From Eledone cirrhosa (lineage: Eukaryota): a stretch of 64,000 bases of DNA. The number at the start of each line of letters is the position of its first letter. The first letter of the stretch is position 1. Positions 13,933 to 36,317 of this stretch are shown here, piece after piece. Where the stretch lies: contig OZ024745.1 in NCBI GenBank assembly GCA_964016885.1, positions 45,880,001-45,944,000 on the forward strand. The letters run 5' to 3'. Below the pieces are notes generated by a model that saw only the letters and a program-made list of their open reading frames with translations, was not told where the DNA came from and made no database searches. Both the position numbers and the translations under genes were made by a program.

Positions 13933-14262
13933 TAATGACTATAGCTAGTAAACTAGATATCTAACTAGATTGTCACAGAGCTAACTAGCTAGCCGATTAT
14001 AAAGTTTGTGTTCACATTCCTTCATTGGGATAGCCCGAGTGTGAGTTGACGTAGAAGGAAGGATCTTAGTCGATATGTGATATGTGTAAGTGACAGGTAA
14101 ATACTTAGCTATGTTGCTACCTAATAAGCTAGCTACCTATTTAACTGCCAAGCCATATTAATTGTAGATTCCGATTCGTAGATAGTGTGACAATTGATCA
14201 ATATATATGCTGCTCTTATGTGTGTCTGTGTATGTGTGCGTGTCTGTGCGTGAGTCTATGTG

Positions 14263-14372
<110 letters not shown>

Positions 14373-14454
14373 GTACCATATATAGATACATACATAGAGA
14401 CAGAAAATAAGAGAGGGAGAAATAGCTAGCAAGCAAGCCAGCTAGCTAGATAAC

Positions 14455-14487
<33 letters not shown>

Positions 14488-14678
14488 AGGGAGAGAGAGA
14501 GAGAAAGAGAGAGAGAGAGGTATTTTCACAAATTAATTAAATGAAGCTTGCTGCTAAAGGGAATGAAAGAATGAAGGAGTTAGTGAAATATAAAGAAGCA
14601 ACTATTGAGCAGAGAGTAATAAGGTTAAGGTGTCGTGAGATTACAGTTGTCGGAGACATGAACCATTGCCTACTCCCA

Positions 14679-14763
14679 TTCTTCTTCTTCTTCTTCTTCT
14701 TCTTCTTCTTCTTCTTCTTCTTCTTCTTCTTCTTCTTCTTCTTCTTCTTCTTCTTCTTCTTCT
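14679..14763. repeat. (CTT)n
   Basis: Direct reading. Confidence 0.97.
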
Positions 14764-14945
14764 GTCCCAGGACACCAGTTACACAAGAAATGTTTGCTCT
14801 CACTTTCAGTATATCTACTTACCTCTTACTATCTTCTCTCACTCGCTTTCTCTCTTTCTTCACATAAAGACACATACACAAACACTGATACACACACACA
14901 CTTACACATATATCTATATACATATATGTGTGTGTGAGTATACAT

Positions 14946-14978
<33 letters not shown>

Positions 14979-14980
14979 AG

Positions 14981-15121
14981 AAATTAAAAGATGGTTAAAA
15001 AAGTTCCATATCTTTTAATTTCTTCTTTAATATATACTCCAGTTCTACCAACTGTTGAGTGCTACTTATCTGATATATGCATAGTTTTATTGTTCTACAA
15101 TATTACTCACCTTCTAGATAG

Positions 15122-15163
<42 letters not shown>

Positions 15164-15297
15164 AGAAGGTGAGTAATATTGTAGAACAATAAAACTATGC
15201 ATATATCAGATAAGTAGCACTCAACAGTTGGTAGAACTGGAGTATATATTAAAGAAGAAATTAAAAGATATGGAACTTTTTTAACCATCTTTTAATT

Positions 15298-15298
<1 letters not shown>
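14981..15298. repeat. 136-bp inverted repeat (14981-15116 / 15163-15298) with a microsatellite spacer, flanked by (TA)n
   Basis: Arms read as exact reverse complements; the ORF track gives the same peptide on both strands. Confidence 0.95.
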
Positions 15299-15333
<35 letters not shown>

Positions 15334-15359
15334 TGGGGGGGGGTATAAACTTGTATAAT

Positions 15360-15900
15360 ACGTTTATATACAATAAACATATGAGTAGCCTCGCTGCCGA
15401 AGATTTTTTCCGTAACGAAACGAAATAAGCATTTTTTTCTTCTTTATTTTCCTATATGGATATGTCACCGAGTTTCCATTATATTCTGAGAATGTCAGAT
15501 AGCGTTGTTTCAAGATTTGTTAAACTTTCATCAGTGACTCATAACATGCGTGCATGAAATAGACTATGATTTTTCTAGAATTTTGCGTGATGATCACTCG
15601 CATGAAATACTGATGTACATGTAGCAAATAGAAAACATCGGCTGGAAATAGTCATTTGCATATTGTCCGAGCTTGTCCCAGCGTTTAAGTATAATAGATG
15701 TGTATATGAAAACATATGTAAACGTGTATAATACATTTATATTTAATAAAAAATATGGGTAGCCTCACTGTCGAAGAAAAATATTTATTTTTATCTATTT
15801 TCCTCTATACATATATATAACGTTGCCAGTATGTTGCTAGAGTGTCAGACTTCGTGCTCAAGATTCATTAATCTTTCATCATTAACACTGACTCAAAATC
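15360..15900 (-). mobile_element. Diverged tandem dimer (~350-375-bp period) with a hammerhead-like motif in each unit; possible older retrozyme
   Basis: atatgagtagcctcgctgccgaaga / atatgggtagcctcactgtcgaaga; gtcagat..caagatt..ctttcatca..tgactca present twice. Confidence 0.55.
15494..15538 (-). ncRNA. Type-I hammerhead ribozyme motif (stem III degenerate)
   Basis: Minus strand: gtca CTGATGA aag-tttaacaaat-ctt GAAA caacgcta TC tgac; stem I gtca/tgac, stem II aag/ctt. Confidence 0.6.
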
Positions 15901-15904
15901 TACT

Positions 15905-15938
<34 letters not shown>

Positions 15939-16058
15939 TATAGACATAGAATATTCGAAAATATTCTGTATGTTTATAATAAACATTTTGAAGACCTAAT
16001 CGCTATAGAATAGAATACGTCACGTATTACAATTAGATTCTCGATAAAAGCAAGGGAA

Positions 16059-16101
16059 GTAATCTACGCGTTTCATTCTTATTAGAAATCTTCAGGACTA
16101 C
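16059..16101 (-). ncRNA. Minimal type-I hammerhead ribozyme, copy 1
   Basis: Reverse complement of gtagtc CTGAAGA tttctaataagaat GAAA cgcg TA gattac. Confidence 0.8.
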
Positions 16102-16368
16102 ATATCCAGTGCTTTTATCGAGAATGACACAGCTAGAGACTTATAGAATACTTAGCTGTGTACAGGAACTGGTTTGAAAGAGCGGTTGCCGGTCCGGCAG
16201 AAATTAGAAATTGGAATAAATGCTCTGAAATAGCGATATATATGTGAATATAGACATAGAATATTCGAAAATATTCTGTATGTTTATAATAAACATTTTG
16301 AAGACCTAATCGCTATAGAATAGAATACGTCACGTATTACAATTAGATTCTCGATAAAAGCAAGGGAA

Positions 16369-16411
16369 GTAATCTACGCGTTTCATTCTTATTAGAAATC
16401 TTCAGGACTAC
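16369..16411 (-). ncRNA. Minimal type-I hammerhead ribozyme, copy 2
   Basis: Identical motif 310 bp downstream of copy 1. Confidence 0.8.
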
Positions 16412-16860
16412 ATATCCAGTGCTTTTATCGAGAATGACACAGCTAGAGACTTATAGAATACTTAGCTGTGTACAGGAACTGGTTTGAAAGAGCGGTTGCC
16501 GGTCCGGCAGAAATTAGAAATTGGAATAAATGCTCTGAAATAGCGATATATATGTGAATATAGACATAGAATATTCGAAAATATTCTGTATGTTTATAAT
16601 AAACATTTTGAAGACCTAATCGCTATAGAATAGAATACGTCACGTATTACAATTAGATTCTCAAAATGTTTATTATAAACATACAGAATATTTTCGAATA
16701 TTCTATGTCTATATTCACATATATATCGCTATTTCAGAGCATTTATTCCAATTTCTAATTTCTGCCGGACCGGCAACCGCTCTTTCAAACCAGTTCCTGT
16801 ACACAGCTAAGTATTCTATAAGTCTCTAGCTGTGTCATTCTCGATAAAAGCACTGGATAT

Positions 16861-16903
16861 GTAGTCCTGAAGATTTCTAATAAGAATGAAACGCGTAGAT
16901 TAC
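16861..16903 (+). ncRNA. Minimal type-I hammerhead ribozyme, copy 3
   Basis: Stem I GTAGTC/GATTAC; core CTGAAGA 16867-16873; stem II TTCT/AGAA with AATA loop and a U.U closing mismatch; GAAA 16888-16891; palindromic ACGCGT; predicted cleavage after A16897 (GUA). Confidence 0.8.
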
Positions 16904-17170
16904 TTCCCTTGCTTTTATCGAGAATTTAATTGTAATACGTGACGTATTCTATTCTATAGCGATTAGGTCTTCAAAATGTTTATTATAAACATACAGAATA
17001 TTTTCGAATATTCTATGTCTATATTCACATATATATCGCTATTTCAGAGCATTTATTCCAATTTCTAATTCCTGCCGGACCGGCAACCGCTCTTTCAAAC
17101 CAGTTCCTGTACACAGCTAAGTATTCTATAAGTCTCTAGCTGTGTCATTCTCGATAAAAGCACTGGATAT

Positions 17171-17213
17171 GTAGTCCTGAAGATTTCTAATAAGAATGAA
17201 ACGCGTAGATTAC
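17171..17213 (+). ncRNA. Minimal type-I hammerhead ribozyme, copy 4
   Basis: Identical to copy 3. Confidence 0.8.
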
Positions 17214-17480
17214 TTCCCTTGCTTTTATCGAGAATCTAATTGTAATACGTGACGTATTCTATTCTATAGCGATTAGGTCTTCAAAATGTTTATTATAAAC
17301 ATACAGAATATTTTCGAATATTCTATGTCTATATTCACATATATATCGCTATTTCAGAGCATTTATTCCAATTTCTAATTTCTGCCGGACCGGCAACCGC
17401 TCTTTCAAACCAGTTCCTGTACACAGCTAAGTATTCTATAAGTCTCTAGCTGTGTCATTCTCGATAAAAGCACTGGATAT

Positions 17481-17523
17481 GTAGTCCTGAAGATTTCTAA
17501 TAAGAATGAAACGCGTAGATTAC
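17481..17523 (+). ncRNA. Minimal type-I hammerhead ribozyme, copy 5
   Basis: Identical to copy 3. Confidence 0.8.
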
Positions 17524-17790
17524 TTCCCTTGCTTTTATCGAGAATCTAATTGTAATACGTGACGTATTCTATTCTATAGCGATTAGGTCTTCAAAATGTT
17601 TATTATAAACATACAGAATATTTTCGAATATTCTATGTCTATATTCACATATATATCGCTATTTCAGAGCATTTATTCCAATTTCTAATTTCTGCCGGAC
17701 CGGCAACCGCTCTTTCAAACCAGTTCCTGTACACAGCTAAGTATTCTATAAGTCTCTAGCTGTGTCATTCTCGATAAAAGCACTGGATAT

Positions 17791-17833
17791 GTAGTCCTGA
17801 AGATTTCTAATAAGAATGAAACCCGTAGATTAC
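17791..17833 (+). ncRNA. Minimal type-I hammerhead, copy 6 (stem III palindrome broken, ACGCGT to ACCCGT)
   Basis: G to C at 17823. Confidence 0.7.
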
Positions 17834-17991
17834 TTCCCTTGCTTTTATCGAGAATCTAATTGTAATACGTGACGTATTCTATTCTATAGCGATTAGGTCT
17901 TCAAAATGTTTATTATAAACATACAGAATATTTTCGAATATTCTATGTCTATATTCACATATATATCGCTATTTCAGAGCATTTATTCCAA

Positions 17992-18047
<56 letters not shown>

Positions 18048-18093
18048 GATATTAACAAATGGAAACTATATTTATAAAACCATATTTATTTCA

Positions 18094-18147
18094 TTATACA
18101 TATTTCAAGGACACCAAGTTAAATTATGGTGTGCTTTCATCAGACAA
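18094..18147 (-). ncRNA. Hammerhead-like motif (Penelope-type minimal stem III)
   Basis: Minus strand: ttgt CTGATGA aagcacacca-taatttaact-tggtgtcctt GAAA tatg TA taat, then AATAAA; stem II pairs 9 of 10 bp; stem I weak. Confidence 0.55.
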
Positions 18148-18271
18148 AATATAATATAGATCAGTTTTATAAATAAATATTGACATACCCTTAAAAAATG
18201 CAACCATTACTGTTGGCATATATATATATATATATGCCAAACCGTTTGGATGGGACCACCCATGTAAACTC

Positions 18272-18355
18272 TCATATCTGAAGAAGTGTCGATTAAGATT
18301 CGGGATACGATCGCATGATCAAACCCGAGCTGATTGATATAGAAACATTTATAAT
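18272..18355 (+). ncRNA. Degenerate hammerhead-like motif with a long stem II
   Basis: CTGAAGA 18278-18284; gtgtcgat/attgatat and ttcggg/cccgag pairings; GAAACATTTA then AATAAA. Confidence 0.35.
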
Positions 18356-19366
18356 AAATAATATCAAATATATACTGTATATATAAATAATATCAAATAT
18401 AAAGTTTACAAAAAGCTGCAATTCTTATTGTCACTTTATATACACTCTGCAAAGTACATCCGCCTTAAACTTGGAACACAACCCAACGAGAGATGGGCCC
18501 AGTAACAGCATCAAGTGCTTCGACCAGCGTCGCCGCTAGTAACCACAAGCTACTCAAATACTGACATTGCCATTAGTCGGAGGTCACGCTATGAGTGCCT
18601 TTAATCTATTGTGTCATGAATGCTACTATCACTTGCTCTTATTATCTGGTATACGTAACACCATGGATCTACTGCCTGGCTGTCTTCTGAGTTAACTATT
18701 GGGACACCGTGATTTGGTTCTCTACCTTGAGTATTTGGAATAAATTGAACGTAGCGTTGAAGAAATGTTCCCCTATTTTCATATATTGGATCTACTTCGT
18801 CGAATAAATATTTTCCTAGATTCTGAGGACTGGAGACCGATGGTTCAGTCGAACTCCTGATAAGGCCACGCCATTGAGTTTTTTCATCACAAACTTAATC
18901 CTAATATAAATCCATACAACACGCGACTACGGTTTATGACTAGTTACTTACTTTTTAATTAATTAGTTGCTTTTTAACTAATTACTTAGATTAGAATTAG
19001 AATTCTTCACTTCTCGTAACCATATACTTTTTATAACTCTTTATAACTTTATTTGTTTACTCTTTCTTGGTTTATTTGCTTGGTTTTCTCCTTTTTACTG
19101 GAGTTGCGACCGATAGATAGTATTAGCAATTGGAAAGACCAACGGAAACATTGTTTCCTCGGTCCGATTTGACGAAAATAGATCGTTCTCCTTTTTATAA
19201 TCCTTGTAATCTCTATAGTATTTATAACATTTCACACCACTAAAGTTTATACCCTTTAAGAGATTCCCTGTCAGGCTACGTTGGTTTTGGGCCTGAGACT
19301 ATCACTATCGCAACATAAATAAATGAAATGTAGTTCACTTATTTTCGATCTTCAGGATTACTTTAC

Positions 19367-19579
19367 CCTGGCAGTATCGGTAGAGCGTCAGACACTATGG
19401 TTTGCAGCATAGAGTCATGGCCCTTTACGTTCTGAGTTCAAATCCCAACGAGGTTAACTTTGTCTTTCATTCCTACGGGGTCGATCAAATAAAGTACCAG
19501 TAATGTACTGGGATCGATTTAATCGACTTTCCCCTCCCTCTAAATTGCTGGCCTTGTGTCTATAGTAGAAATCATTATT
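19367..19579 (+). mobile_element. SINE family A, long variant
   Basis: TGGCAGTATCGG, GAGTTCAAATCC, core, extra 'gatcgatttaatcgactttcccctccc' segment, tail gctggccttgtg..gtagaaa. Confidence 0.9.
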
Positions 19580-19661
19580 CATAGTGATCGACTATTGTTG
19601 TAGTCATTTGCGGAGTAACGACTACATTTCAAAATTTCCTAATGTTTCATATGTCAGTCAG

Positions 19662-19744
<83 letters not shown>

Positions 19745-19939
19745 TGTGTGTGTGTGTGTGTGTGTGCGTGCGTGCACGCTTTTGTATGTGTGTCCAGAAA
19801 CTTAGCGTTTCGACAAATAGAATTAGTACCAGGCGTTACATGTGTCGATATAATCAACTGGACCCTTGAATGCACTGCCCCAGTATGGCCGCAGTCGAAA
19901 GACTGAAACAGGTAAAAGGGTAAATGAGTATTTTAGTCT

Positions 19940-20186
19940 TCCTTTCTCACTCTCCCTCTCTCTCGATTTCTCTCGCTCTCTCTCTCACTCTCTTTCTCTC
20001 GCTCTCTCTCTCTCTCTCTCGCTCTCTCTCTCTTGCTCTCCCTCTCTCTCGCTCTCTCTCGCTCTCTCTCTCTCACTCTCTTTCTCTCTCTCTCTCTCTT
20101 TCTCTCTCTCACACTCTCTCTCACTCTCTTTCTCTCGCTCTCTCTCTCTCTCGCTCTCTCTCTCGCTCTCTCTCTCTTGCTCTCTC

Positions 20187-29096: not shown

Positions 29097-29320
29097 TTCA
29101 AATCCCGCCGAGATTGACTTTGCCTTTCATCCTTACGGGGTCGATAAAATAAAGTACCAGTAATGCACTGGGTAATTGCTGGCCTTGTGCCTAAAATAGA
29201 AACAATTATTTATTCAAAGTAAAGAGTTAACTTTGCCTTTCATCCTTACGGTGTCGATAAAATAAAGTACCAGTAATCTACTGGGTAATTGCTGGCCTTG
29301 TGCCAAAAGTAGAAACAATT
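29097..29320 (+). mobile_element. Two tandem 5'-truncated SINE family A copies
   Basis: ~29097-29205 and ~29224-29318; flanking repeat ATTATTTATTCA. Confidence 0.88.
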
Positions 29321-30053
29321 AGTTATTCGAAGTAATCCAACTTATTTTAGTAATGGGATAAAAAATTATAAACCGTACGCAATCCCGCGCTCCTTACTTT
29401 ATTATAGTTTAGATTTACATTCGCTGGACTTGATTTAGTCACAAATTATTTAGAGGTTGATTTCTTTTTATAATTTCAGTTTTTGAATAATACCAGTAAT
29501 GTATTACTGTTGAATTTTTCGTTTACATTATCTCCCTTTATAAAAACTGACATAAAATCATAAACCAAAACAAATCTATATTGGTGTTATTAGTTTCGCC
29601 TTCATCGTGTTATCTTTCTTTGTGTGATATTATTATTTCATGTTTAGTTTTTAAACTGGTTCTATTTTCTCACCTTTGAGCTTAGGATGATCCTGAACTC
29701 AGGATGAACCTGAGTTCAAATGTGAAACTCCAGAATAATAACACTCATCACTTAATCATAATAAAGAATATTGAAAATCATCTTCAGAATTGAGTACTCT
29801 TTCTTGCGTTTGTCATTATTGCACGAATATATATATATATATGTGTGTGTGCGCGTGTGTGTGTGTGTGTGTGTGTGTGCGTGTGTGTGCGTGTGTGTGT
29901 GTATAATATATATATATAGAGAGAGAGAGAGGGGGGACACATGTGTGTGTGTGTGTGTACATATATACACACTACATACATATGTGCCTGTGTATGTGTG
30001 CATATTTTCTTTTTTGTATTATTTTTCTAACTTTTCCTGGATATCTTTACCAT

Positions 30054-35409: not shown

Positions 35410-36317
35410 TAATGGTTTCTACATTTGGCACAAGGCCAGCAATTATCCCAGTGCATTACTGGTACTTTATTTTATCGACCCCCGTTAGGATGAAAGGCAA
35501 AGTTAACCTCGGCGGGATTTGAACTCAGAATGGCAAGGGCCGTAACTCTATACGTCAAAGCATGGCGTCCGACCCTCTACCGATACTGTCAATCCACCGC
35601 GTCGCTCTAATAATTGTTTCTACTTTTTGGCACAAGGCCAGCAATTATCCCAGTACATTACTGGTACTTTATTTTATCGACCCCATAAGGATGAAAAGCA
35701 AAGTTAACCTCAGCGGGATTTGAACTCAGACCATAAAGGGCCGTCTCTAATAATGGTTTCTTATATAGGTACAAGGCCAGTAATTTGGGGAGAGGGAGAA
35801 GTCGATTAAATCGACCTCAGTGCGTAACTGGTACTTTATTTTATCGACCCCATAAGGATGAAAGGCAAAGTTAACCTCGGCGGGATTTGAGCTCAGGCCG
35901 TCTCTAATAATTGTTTCTACTTTAGGCACAAGGCCAGCAATTACCCAGTGCATTACTGGTACTTTATTTTATCGACCCCGTAAGGATGAAAGGTAAAGTC
36001 AACCTCGGCGGGATTTGAACTCAGATCGTAAAGGGACGTAACTGTGCTGCAAAGCAAGGCGTCCGACCCTCTACCAATACTGCCAATCCACCGCCCTCAG
36101 GCCGTCTCTAATAATTGTTTCTACTTTTGACACAAGGCCAGCAATTACCCAGTGATATTACTGGTACTTTATTTTATCGACCCCGTAAGGATGAAAGGCA
36201 AAGTTAACCTCGGCGGGATTTGAACTCAGACCGTAAAGGGACGTAACTATGTTGGAAAGCATGTCCGACTCTCTACCAATACTGCCAATTGACCGCCCTC
36301 AGGCCGTCTCTAATAAT
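35410..36317 (-). mobile_element. Stack of five head-to-tail SINE family A copies
   Basis: Copies at ~35410-35600, 35612-35743, 35753-35896, 35911-36097 and 36115-36298, separated by the recurring linker (CTCAG)GCCGTCTCTAATAAT. Confidence 0.92.

Follow-up and report, generated by a model that had tools for sequence, protein, structure and literature searches.

How a 310-nt unit without coding capacity came to be written, in tandem and in both orientations, into a (TA)n microsatellite of Eledone cirrhosa is the question raised by this locus. It lies in a 64,000-nt stretch of contig OZ024745.1 (positions 45,880,001 to 45,944,000, forward strand), hereafter the window, to which the coordinates below refer. 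The original prediction, made from the letters alone, had read it as a hammerhead retrozyme whose multimeric transcripts cleave themselves into monomers that circularize and are reinserted by a helper reverse transcriptase (RT). Our analysis supports the retrozyme reading: tandem units without an ORF occur at dispersed loci, and their hammerhead shows covariation when sister families are compared. On every sequence feature examined, the window element is a member of the non-LTR retrozymes. We read it as a young non-autonomous Penelope-like element (PLE) of this kind, and give a probability of about 0.93 to its mobilization by a Penelope-like element.

Anatomy of the insertion in the window

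TRF delimits two arrays of period 310, at 15926-16662 (2.4 copies) and 16661-17999 (4.3 copies), with 99% matches, and (TA)n on both sides of them (15907-15935 and 17998-18046). The two arms are reverse complements in head-to-head orientation. Arrays, flanks, and orientation thus bear out the claim of an ORF-less 310-nt unit, tandem and inverted, within (TA)n. The unit contains 34% GC, its longest stop-free frame is 59 codons, and no LTR layout is apparent in the retrozyme copies. Unit positions are numbered from the predicted hammerhead cleavage site. A pattern match identified the core gtagtc-CUGAAGA-UUUCUAAUAAGAAU-GAAA-CGCG-UA-gauuac in all six full units, four on the plus strand (core starts 16867, 17177, 17487, and 17797; predicted cuts after A16897, 17207, 17517, and 17827) and two on the minus strand (core starts 16405 and 16095). 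The features are listed below, S standing for the short end and T for the tailed end.

15907-15935, left (TA)n target tract (TRF)
15936-16662, minus strand, S arm of 2.4 units, with its 5′ break at unit position 23 and its 3′ end at ~130
16059-16101, minus strand, type I hammerhead, predicted cut after 16065 (extent calculated from the core start, 16095)
16369-16411, minus strand, type I hammerhead, predicted cut after 16375 (extent calculated from the core start, 16405)
16661-16662, head-to-head junction, 2-nt microhomology
16661-17999, plus strand, T arm of 4.3 units, with its 3′ end at position 172 of the unit
16861-16903, plus strand, type I hammerhead, predicted cut after 16897 (pattern match)
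16898-17207, plus strand, one cut-to-cut monomer, the predicted 310-nt RNA
17171-17213, plus strand, type I hammerhead, predicted cut after 17207 (pattern match)
17481-17523, plus strand, type I hammerhead, predicted cut after 17517 (pattern match)
17791-17833, plus strand, hammerhead with G>C at 17823 breaking the stem III palindrome (pattern match)
17967-17999, plus strand, Penelope-type "tail", unit positions 140-172, at the T end only (a tail as described in the available parts of PMC8557442 and PMC11167929)
17998-18046, right (TA)n target tract (TRF)

Because the unit carries its own ATATATAT, the 3′ end of the S arm is ambiguous, from unit position ~130 up to 139. The array ends in the window are not located at the cleavage site, and no 3′ end at that site was found genome-wide for the haplotype class searched.

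The claim that every full unit holds the conserved core stands for the core pattern (6/6) and in part for the palindrome ACGCGU of stem III, intact in five of the six units; the last plus-strand core reads ACCCGU. As predicted, this stem does not close within a monomer: it is absent from the monomer fold, and the palindromes pair in a two-copy fold. Stem II consists of three pairs only, with a U.U mismatch at its base. In the folded circle, computed pair probabilities are 0.78-1.0 for stem I and 0.15-0.17 for stem II. The 310-nt monomer folds far better than shuffled sequences (z -4.75), its ends being closed in the computed fold by a long 16-bp helix (unit 13-28 with 250-265) and by stem I. 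From these folds, the transcript may cleave itself through a dimer paired at the palindrome. The Rfam check proposed with the original prediction failed: a scan of 14000-20000 returned hairpin miRNA noise only and no hammerhead match even at E<=10, although the motif is real.

TA tracts here often carry stacked insertions. A 350-nt palindrome at 14965-15314 (92% complementary), bounded on each side by (TA)n and centered on a microsatellite, is possibly another two-armed insertion. A very high-copy repeat starts directly after the right (TA)n tract (18052-18200). Farther along the window, tandem duplications of 113 and 205 nt (29117-29335 and 35892-36317) involve a dispersed repeat that they share, which we take to be a common octopus SINE-like sequence.

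A dispersed family with two fixed 3′ ends

Searched for genome-wide as had been proposed, the unit proved to be dispersed at many loci. In 3.0 Gb, an exact 32-letter core pattern, which covers only part of the haplotypes, gave 3,151 matches (control, 0). S ends number 1,622, and T ends 882 on the forward strand alone, the count used here since overlapping matches inflate the reverse-strand figure; S and T ends are therefore in a ratio of about 1:1. The family comprises about 1,600 insertions.

We studied 75 stretches: set A (n = 20) from a DNA search, set B (n = 16) from the first core matches on contig C1, and set C (n = 39) from the first short-end matches on the same contig, hence chosen on one end. 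They yielded 64 two-arm and 22 single-arm rows. Both outer ends were classed in 51 two-arm rows, the 13 others having an open or unclassed end and being left out of the end count. Fifty combine one S and one T end, a single row is T+T (L044, on a small unplaced contig), and none is S+S. S ends fall within unit positions ~130-139, and T ends, 25-40 nt farther on, within 156-172 (mode 165). In sets A and B, which were not selected on an end, S+T occurs in 24 of 25 rows, an outcome of probability ~8e-7 if ends were independent at even odds. Among the open or unclassed rows of set C, six have a T end at the expected place in the genome-wide T list and a seventh probably does. At the loci studied, all of them filled, the outer ends adjoin (TA)n, in which any target-site duplication would be hidden. 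Inverted arms with two fixed 3′ ends are the rule of this family and its most informative feature, one that the original prediction had missed.

Two loci (L038 and L057) contain higher-order duplications of whole insertions with their TA tracts, and L065 contains a repeated junction. These repeats reflect either post-insertion amplification or assembly effects.

It had also been asked whether the ribozyme core breaks as often as the rest of the unit. In the young family, fixed changes near the ribozyme fall at N7, in loop 2, and at wobble-neutral positions of stem I, and one of them restores the basal pair of stem II. None falls in the core, an absence that alone is not significant (P 0.12), part of the core having been used as anchor; it is the covariation among sister families that speaks for conservation. 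These older families (5,215 matches of the tail motif; units of ~317-320 nt) give the stronger evidence for selection on the ribozyme. Among 78 distinct motifs, positions 3 and 8 are C-G in 63 and U-A in 15, and mixed in none, under a pattern that permitted mixing. Hammerhead variants with U3-A8 are active. For the pairing of these two positions, a double-mutant rescue is cited in PMC11167929. Across 22 sister motifs, 89.6% of cells pair, with 33 double-sided changes against 11.5 after shuffling; as the sister sequences are related, independent covariation events are few.

Older sister retrozyme lineages with 317-320-nt units, a U3-A8 core, and a stable 4-bp stem III were observed at L129, L138, L145, L147, L150, L161, L170, and other loci, and the same one-tail, two-arm layout was found in the sister lineages of L157, L161, and L164. 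A second, unrelated, abundant short element also has a U3-A8 hammerhead with a palindromic stem III, is often present as inverted pairs, and ends ~14 nt past its cut (L048:3106, L054, L064, L066, L074, L093, L099, L120, L137, L143, and L154). Tandem derivatives of 163 and 146 nt, at L159:994-1510 and L166:1043-1215, respectively, keep the tail motif and show no hammerhead; they would bear on the need for the ribozyme in tandem copying.

Template, priming, and candidate helper

The arms of one insertion carry the same haplotype at 49 of 50 comparable loci, compared with 9.8% of 2,808 between-locus pairs (L038, L048, L065, and the duplicate row of L057, complex or gapped, were left out). The 57 loci comprise 28 haplotypes. 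Neighboring insertions 1-3 kb apart (L079, L104) differ from each other in haplotype and are each uniform within. Among 42 young loci with at least three full units, 17 lack any unfixed substitution. A private substitution is fixed throughout in four, below the 21% of units that carry an unfixed change in young arrays; at L054, a locus-private change is fixed in 16/16 full units, across both arms. The variant 174T>C (window 17071), just 3′ of the tail start, is a single-unit change in about ten loci that differ in haplotype, and L008 has it fixed. Changes recurring in scattered units of one locus only were observed in L033, L036, and L102, those of L033 and L036 in non-adjacent units, and L046 contains clear multi-variant duplicated units. 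The recurrent non-adjacent variants and the duplicates of L046 indicate that DNA-level shuffling also acts. Recurrent scattered changes, position 174 included, reflect per-lap RT error, conversion, or sequencing artefact; position 174 and the locus-specific recurrences could be per-lap RT errors made on a single molecule.

Of 38 exactly resolved inner junctions, 30 show 0-5 nt of microhomology (mean 1.73 nt, compared with 0.77 in a random simulation) and eight contain insertions. In three of the latter, the inserted sequence is a 20-29-nt piece of the unit; in one, 260 nt of a different retroelement were captured between the arms (L095:846-1101). The 5′ breaks (n = 118) are distributed all round the unit, positions 1-93 being mildly overrepresented (KS p 0.016), and two lie at most 3 nt from the cut; an apparent pile-up at position 1 was rejected as a filter artefact. 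Drop-out at the cut is no higher than elsewhere, arms traversing it at the general rate. In 563 of 567 cut junctions, nothing changes at the cut beyond haplotype letters; the remainder are three G>T at the first base past the cut and one local repeat expansion. Arm length has a median of 2.6 units in both the S and T classes and a maximum of 27. The lengths of the two arms are uncorrelated (rho 0.21, p 0.15), the longer being S in 19 insertions and T in 28, with 3 near-equal (n = 50).

In the model that we favor, and rate as somewhat better than an even bet, both cut strands are primed by a Penelope-type enzyme on a single circular monomer, which it copies by rolling, and the cDNAs then prime each other. 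Taken singly, a single-monomer circular template is likely, and the priming of both target strands equally so. Array transcripts would cleave themselves at GUA, as dimers or with protein help, and the monomers would be closed by ligation into circles of 310 nt. Both strands of a (TA)n tract would be cut by a Penelope-type RT/GIY-YIG enzyme that is probably dimeric, and RT would start from each 3′-OH at two internal sites of one circle, 25-40 nt apart. Each RT would roll for a random number of laps, and the two cDNA 3′ ends would anneal by 0-5 nt and prime each other's second strand, giving head-to-head arms. More tentatively, and slightly short of an even chance, these insertions may be the genomic record of twin-primed rolling-circle RT, in which each subunit of an enzyme dimer has its own start site on one covalent RNA circle. 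If true, this process would explain the tail, inverted copy, and tandem copies of Penelope-like elements generally, and retrozyme "satellite" arrays would be born full length. Weighing against the favored model are the computed weakness of stem II, the uncorrelated arm lengths, the 22 single-arm rows, the small number of loci with a private fixed substitution, and the in vitro results on Xenopus dimers and the Anolis hammerhead given below; the duplicated and recurrent variants of L046, L033, and L036 count against a pure circle. Among the sequencing runs listed as containing the sequence, none is on record as RNA. Runs X4, X5, and X6 each gave one 340-nt contig of the commonest haplotype; as a collapsed tandem array is indistinguishable from a circle, these contigs carry no weight on expression.

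The best surviving alternative, which we regard as unlikely, keeps the same PLE machinery and takes as template a linear multimer that arose by read-through and stayed uncleaved, or else two RNAs of a single dominant source array, the arrays being later homogenized and lengthened by gene conversion and unequal exchange. It would require a long uniform master for each of the 28 haplotypes, and daughters could not outgrow their donors, even though all insertions are truncated at the 5′ end. That the cut site is read through cleanly suits this alternative as well as it suits a circle, and unprocessed RNA was the main substrate in vitro (PMC11167929). The duplicated units of L046 and the recurrent variants of L033 and L036 also favor it, whereas only 5 of 56 unfixed substitutions recur between loci, all at single sites. 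Conversion would moreover have homogenized inverted arms and not insertions 1-3 kb apart.

We find it less probable still that a single monomer served without a covalent RNA circle, whether as a cleaved monomer that its terminal helix keeps shut while the RT jumps across the nick, or through a uniform multimer from a monomer DNA circle. The single-unit bottleneck is explained equally well, and the modeled stem I and 16-bp helix could hold the ends together. The three G>T changes and the repeat expansion at the cut are in its favor, but stops at the cut are not in excess, and no bases are gained or lost in the 563 unchanged junctions. In coral, mussel, and axolotl, retrozyme RNAs have been demonstrated to form covalent circles (PMC7229834).

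Self-priming was proposed for inverted Adineta Penelopes (PMC3846280). One cDNA or antisense RNA would snap back and copy itself into an inverted arm, giving identical arms, and a few insertions are indeed symmetric. The two breaks lie at most 10 nt apart in 7 of 59 junctions, which is not above chance (4.4 expected, P 0.14), either arm may be the longer, and 1 of 78 private variants is mirrored between arms, post-insertion changes not being expected to mirror anyway. Junction, arm-length, and variant data thus disfavor fold-back as a general route, and we consider it improbable. Classical twin priming with a stall at the second primer was rejected on the junction, haplotype, and arm-length data.

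Least probable of all is ordinary satellite DNA or an assembly artefact of palindromic reads with a chance hammerhead, to which the silent Rfam scan and the T+T row on its small unplaced contig would be suited, but the ~1,600 dispersed loci have fixed ends, ribozyme changes are compensatory across sister motifs, an artefact would give equal ends rather than S+T, and many different head-to-head joints are present in contigs of public run X1, which may be the source sample.

As to the helper of the favored twin-strand model, the same genome contains an abundant Neptune-like element, P0001. Within (TA)n, its copies have two alternative ends, located about 131 and 187 nt past their own hammerhead cut, and inverted pairs mostly combine one of each. 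Its start motif resembles that of the retrozyme and lies at a similar distance from its own hammerhead. The translation, an open frame of 1,167 codons, has an RT, a C-terminal GIY-YIG, and a CX2-5CxxC linker, the latter shared by Nematis with Neptune (PMC8557442). Pfam gave no match on P0001 and P0002 (see below) themselves; a GIY-YIG match was obtained in a related fragment, and Atlas neighbors carry RT/GIY-YIG families. In a non-exhaustive search, the unit showed no alignable homology to the P0001 pLTR beyond the short motif, and no retrozyme copy joined to an ORF was found. Since longer homology is lacking, P0001 is the best candidate and not a proven partner; we put the odds that its family is the helper at about even. 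Arm-versus-arm divergence of Neptune pairs is a weak indication, being low in three of seven usable pairs and near the between-locus median in the rest. A Nematis-like PLE, P0002 (L058:1579-4470), with an open frame of 963 codons and an inverted arm ending in (TA)n, is a weaker candidate than P0001; its end motif differs. The predicted reinsertion of a circle by a helper RT gains indirect genomic support from the ends, haplotypes, and cut junctions of the insertions, the ends of P0001 pointing to a Penelope-like helper class, whereas the circle itself is something that we infer.

Three other groups of sequences were rejected as helpers: L031, which is the only diverged DNA match and belongs to an older non-coding sister family; 40 tail-motif loci, also older non-coding sister families; and the PLEs beside copies at L039, L053, and L058, which are separate insertions in the TA tracts that they share with those copies.

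Comparison with known retrozymes, PLEs, and LINE-1

The non-LTR retrozyme is a known kind of element; the anatomy of the insertion is the new part. In the literature covered (subscription papers and Repbase/Dfam were outside its scope), we found no account of this retrozyme family. Within the same range of papers, neither a one-tail rule for retrozymes nor twin priming in PLEs was found. In its accessible part, PMC11662667 mentions cephalopods for twister ribozymes only.

Animal non-LTR retrozymes (PMC7229834; 10.64898/2026.07.22.740005) are likewise ORF-less tandem units of 150-450 bp with low GC, one type I hammerhead per unit, a structured monomer, and co-occurring PLEs. The short palindromic helix III resembles that of axolotl HHR_Amex1, and the U.U at the base of helix II that of HHR_Amex2. 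Head-to-head arms, fixed 3′ ends, a tail, a microsatellite target, and a cephalopod host are not described in the available parts of those reports. Their RNA is proven, whereas that of the window family is predicted. Post-insertion local amplification is the explanation given for arrays in 10.64898/2026.07.22.740005, whereas here they appear to arrive ready-made. The same report finds that one of nine predicted Xenopus retrozyme dimers cleaved in vitro, and argues for a PLE origin of retrozymes from co-occurrence and pLTR similarity. A circle as retrozyme template is only proposed in the accessible text of PMC7229834 and PMC4209133.

Endonuclease-positive PLEs of the Neptune, Nematis, and Naiad type (PMC8557442, PMC3846280, PMC11167929) share further features with the family: an inverted 5′-truncated copy at the 5′ end, a 30-40-bp tail that is often at one end only (PMC8557442), (TA)n targets, a hammerhead upstream of the ends, and microhomology joins. 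PMC8557442 describes as undefined the way in which these elements acquire tandem copies, inverted copies, and a tail on one side. In the in vitro work of PMC11167929, both strands are cut and extended by a Penelope protein for which a dimer is predicted, with starts at two internal positions; the hammerhead of the Anolis PLE required protein, and insertion could do without it. Unlike these PLEs, the window family has no ORF, and its arms run to as many as 27 laps of the 310-nt unit; the two-armed form and the one-tail rule are close to obligatory and lend themselves to counting, and both arms come from one template haplotype. The Chlamys non-autonomous elements such as MRC1 belong to a clade mostly without canonical hammerheads and keep 3′ similarity to their helper (PMC8557442). 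In contrast, the window family has no helper homology beyond the motif.

With ~1,600 young, haplotype-marked insertions, questions about PLE and retrozyme insertion turn into counts. Since the family comes with a defined template of 310 nt, a pair of start sites, (TA)n as target, and a candidate for the enzyme, the open mechanism of PLE and retrozyme insertion becomes directly testable. An enzyme that processively turned a small RNA circle into tandem copies, targeted to microsatellites, would also have interest as a tool.

In LINE-1 twin priming, a single RNA serves as template for primers on both target strands, and an inversion results when the cDNAs are joined by microhomology. The process proposed here is alike in the priming of both strands on one RNA and in the microhomology joins. 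In LINE-1, the site used by the second primer varies, and there is hardly any overlap between the arms. In the family described here, by contrast, both starts are fixed, 25-40 nt apart, and the arms repeat the same sequence many times.
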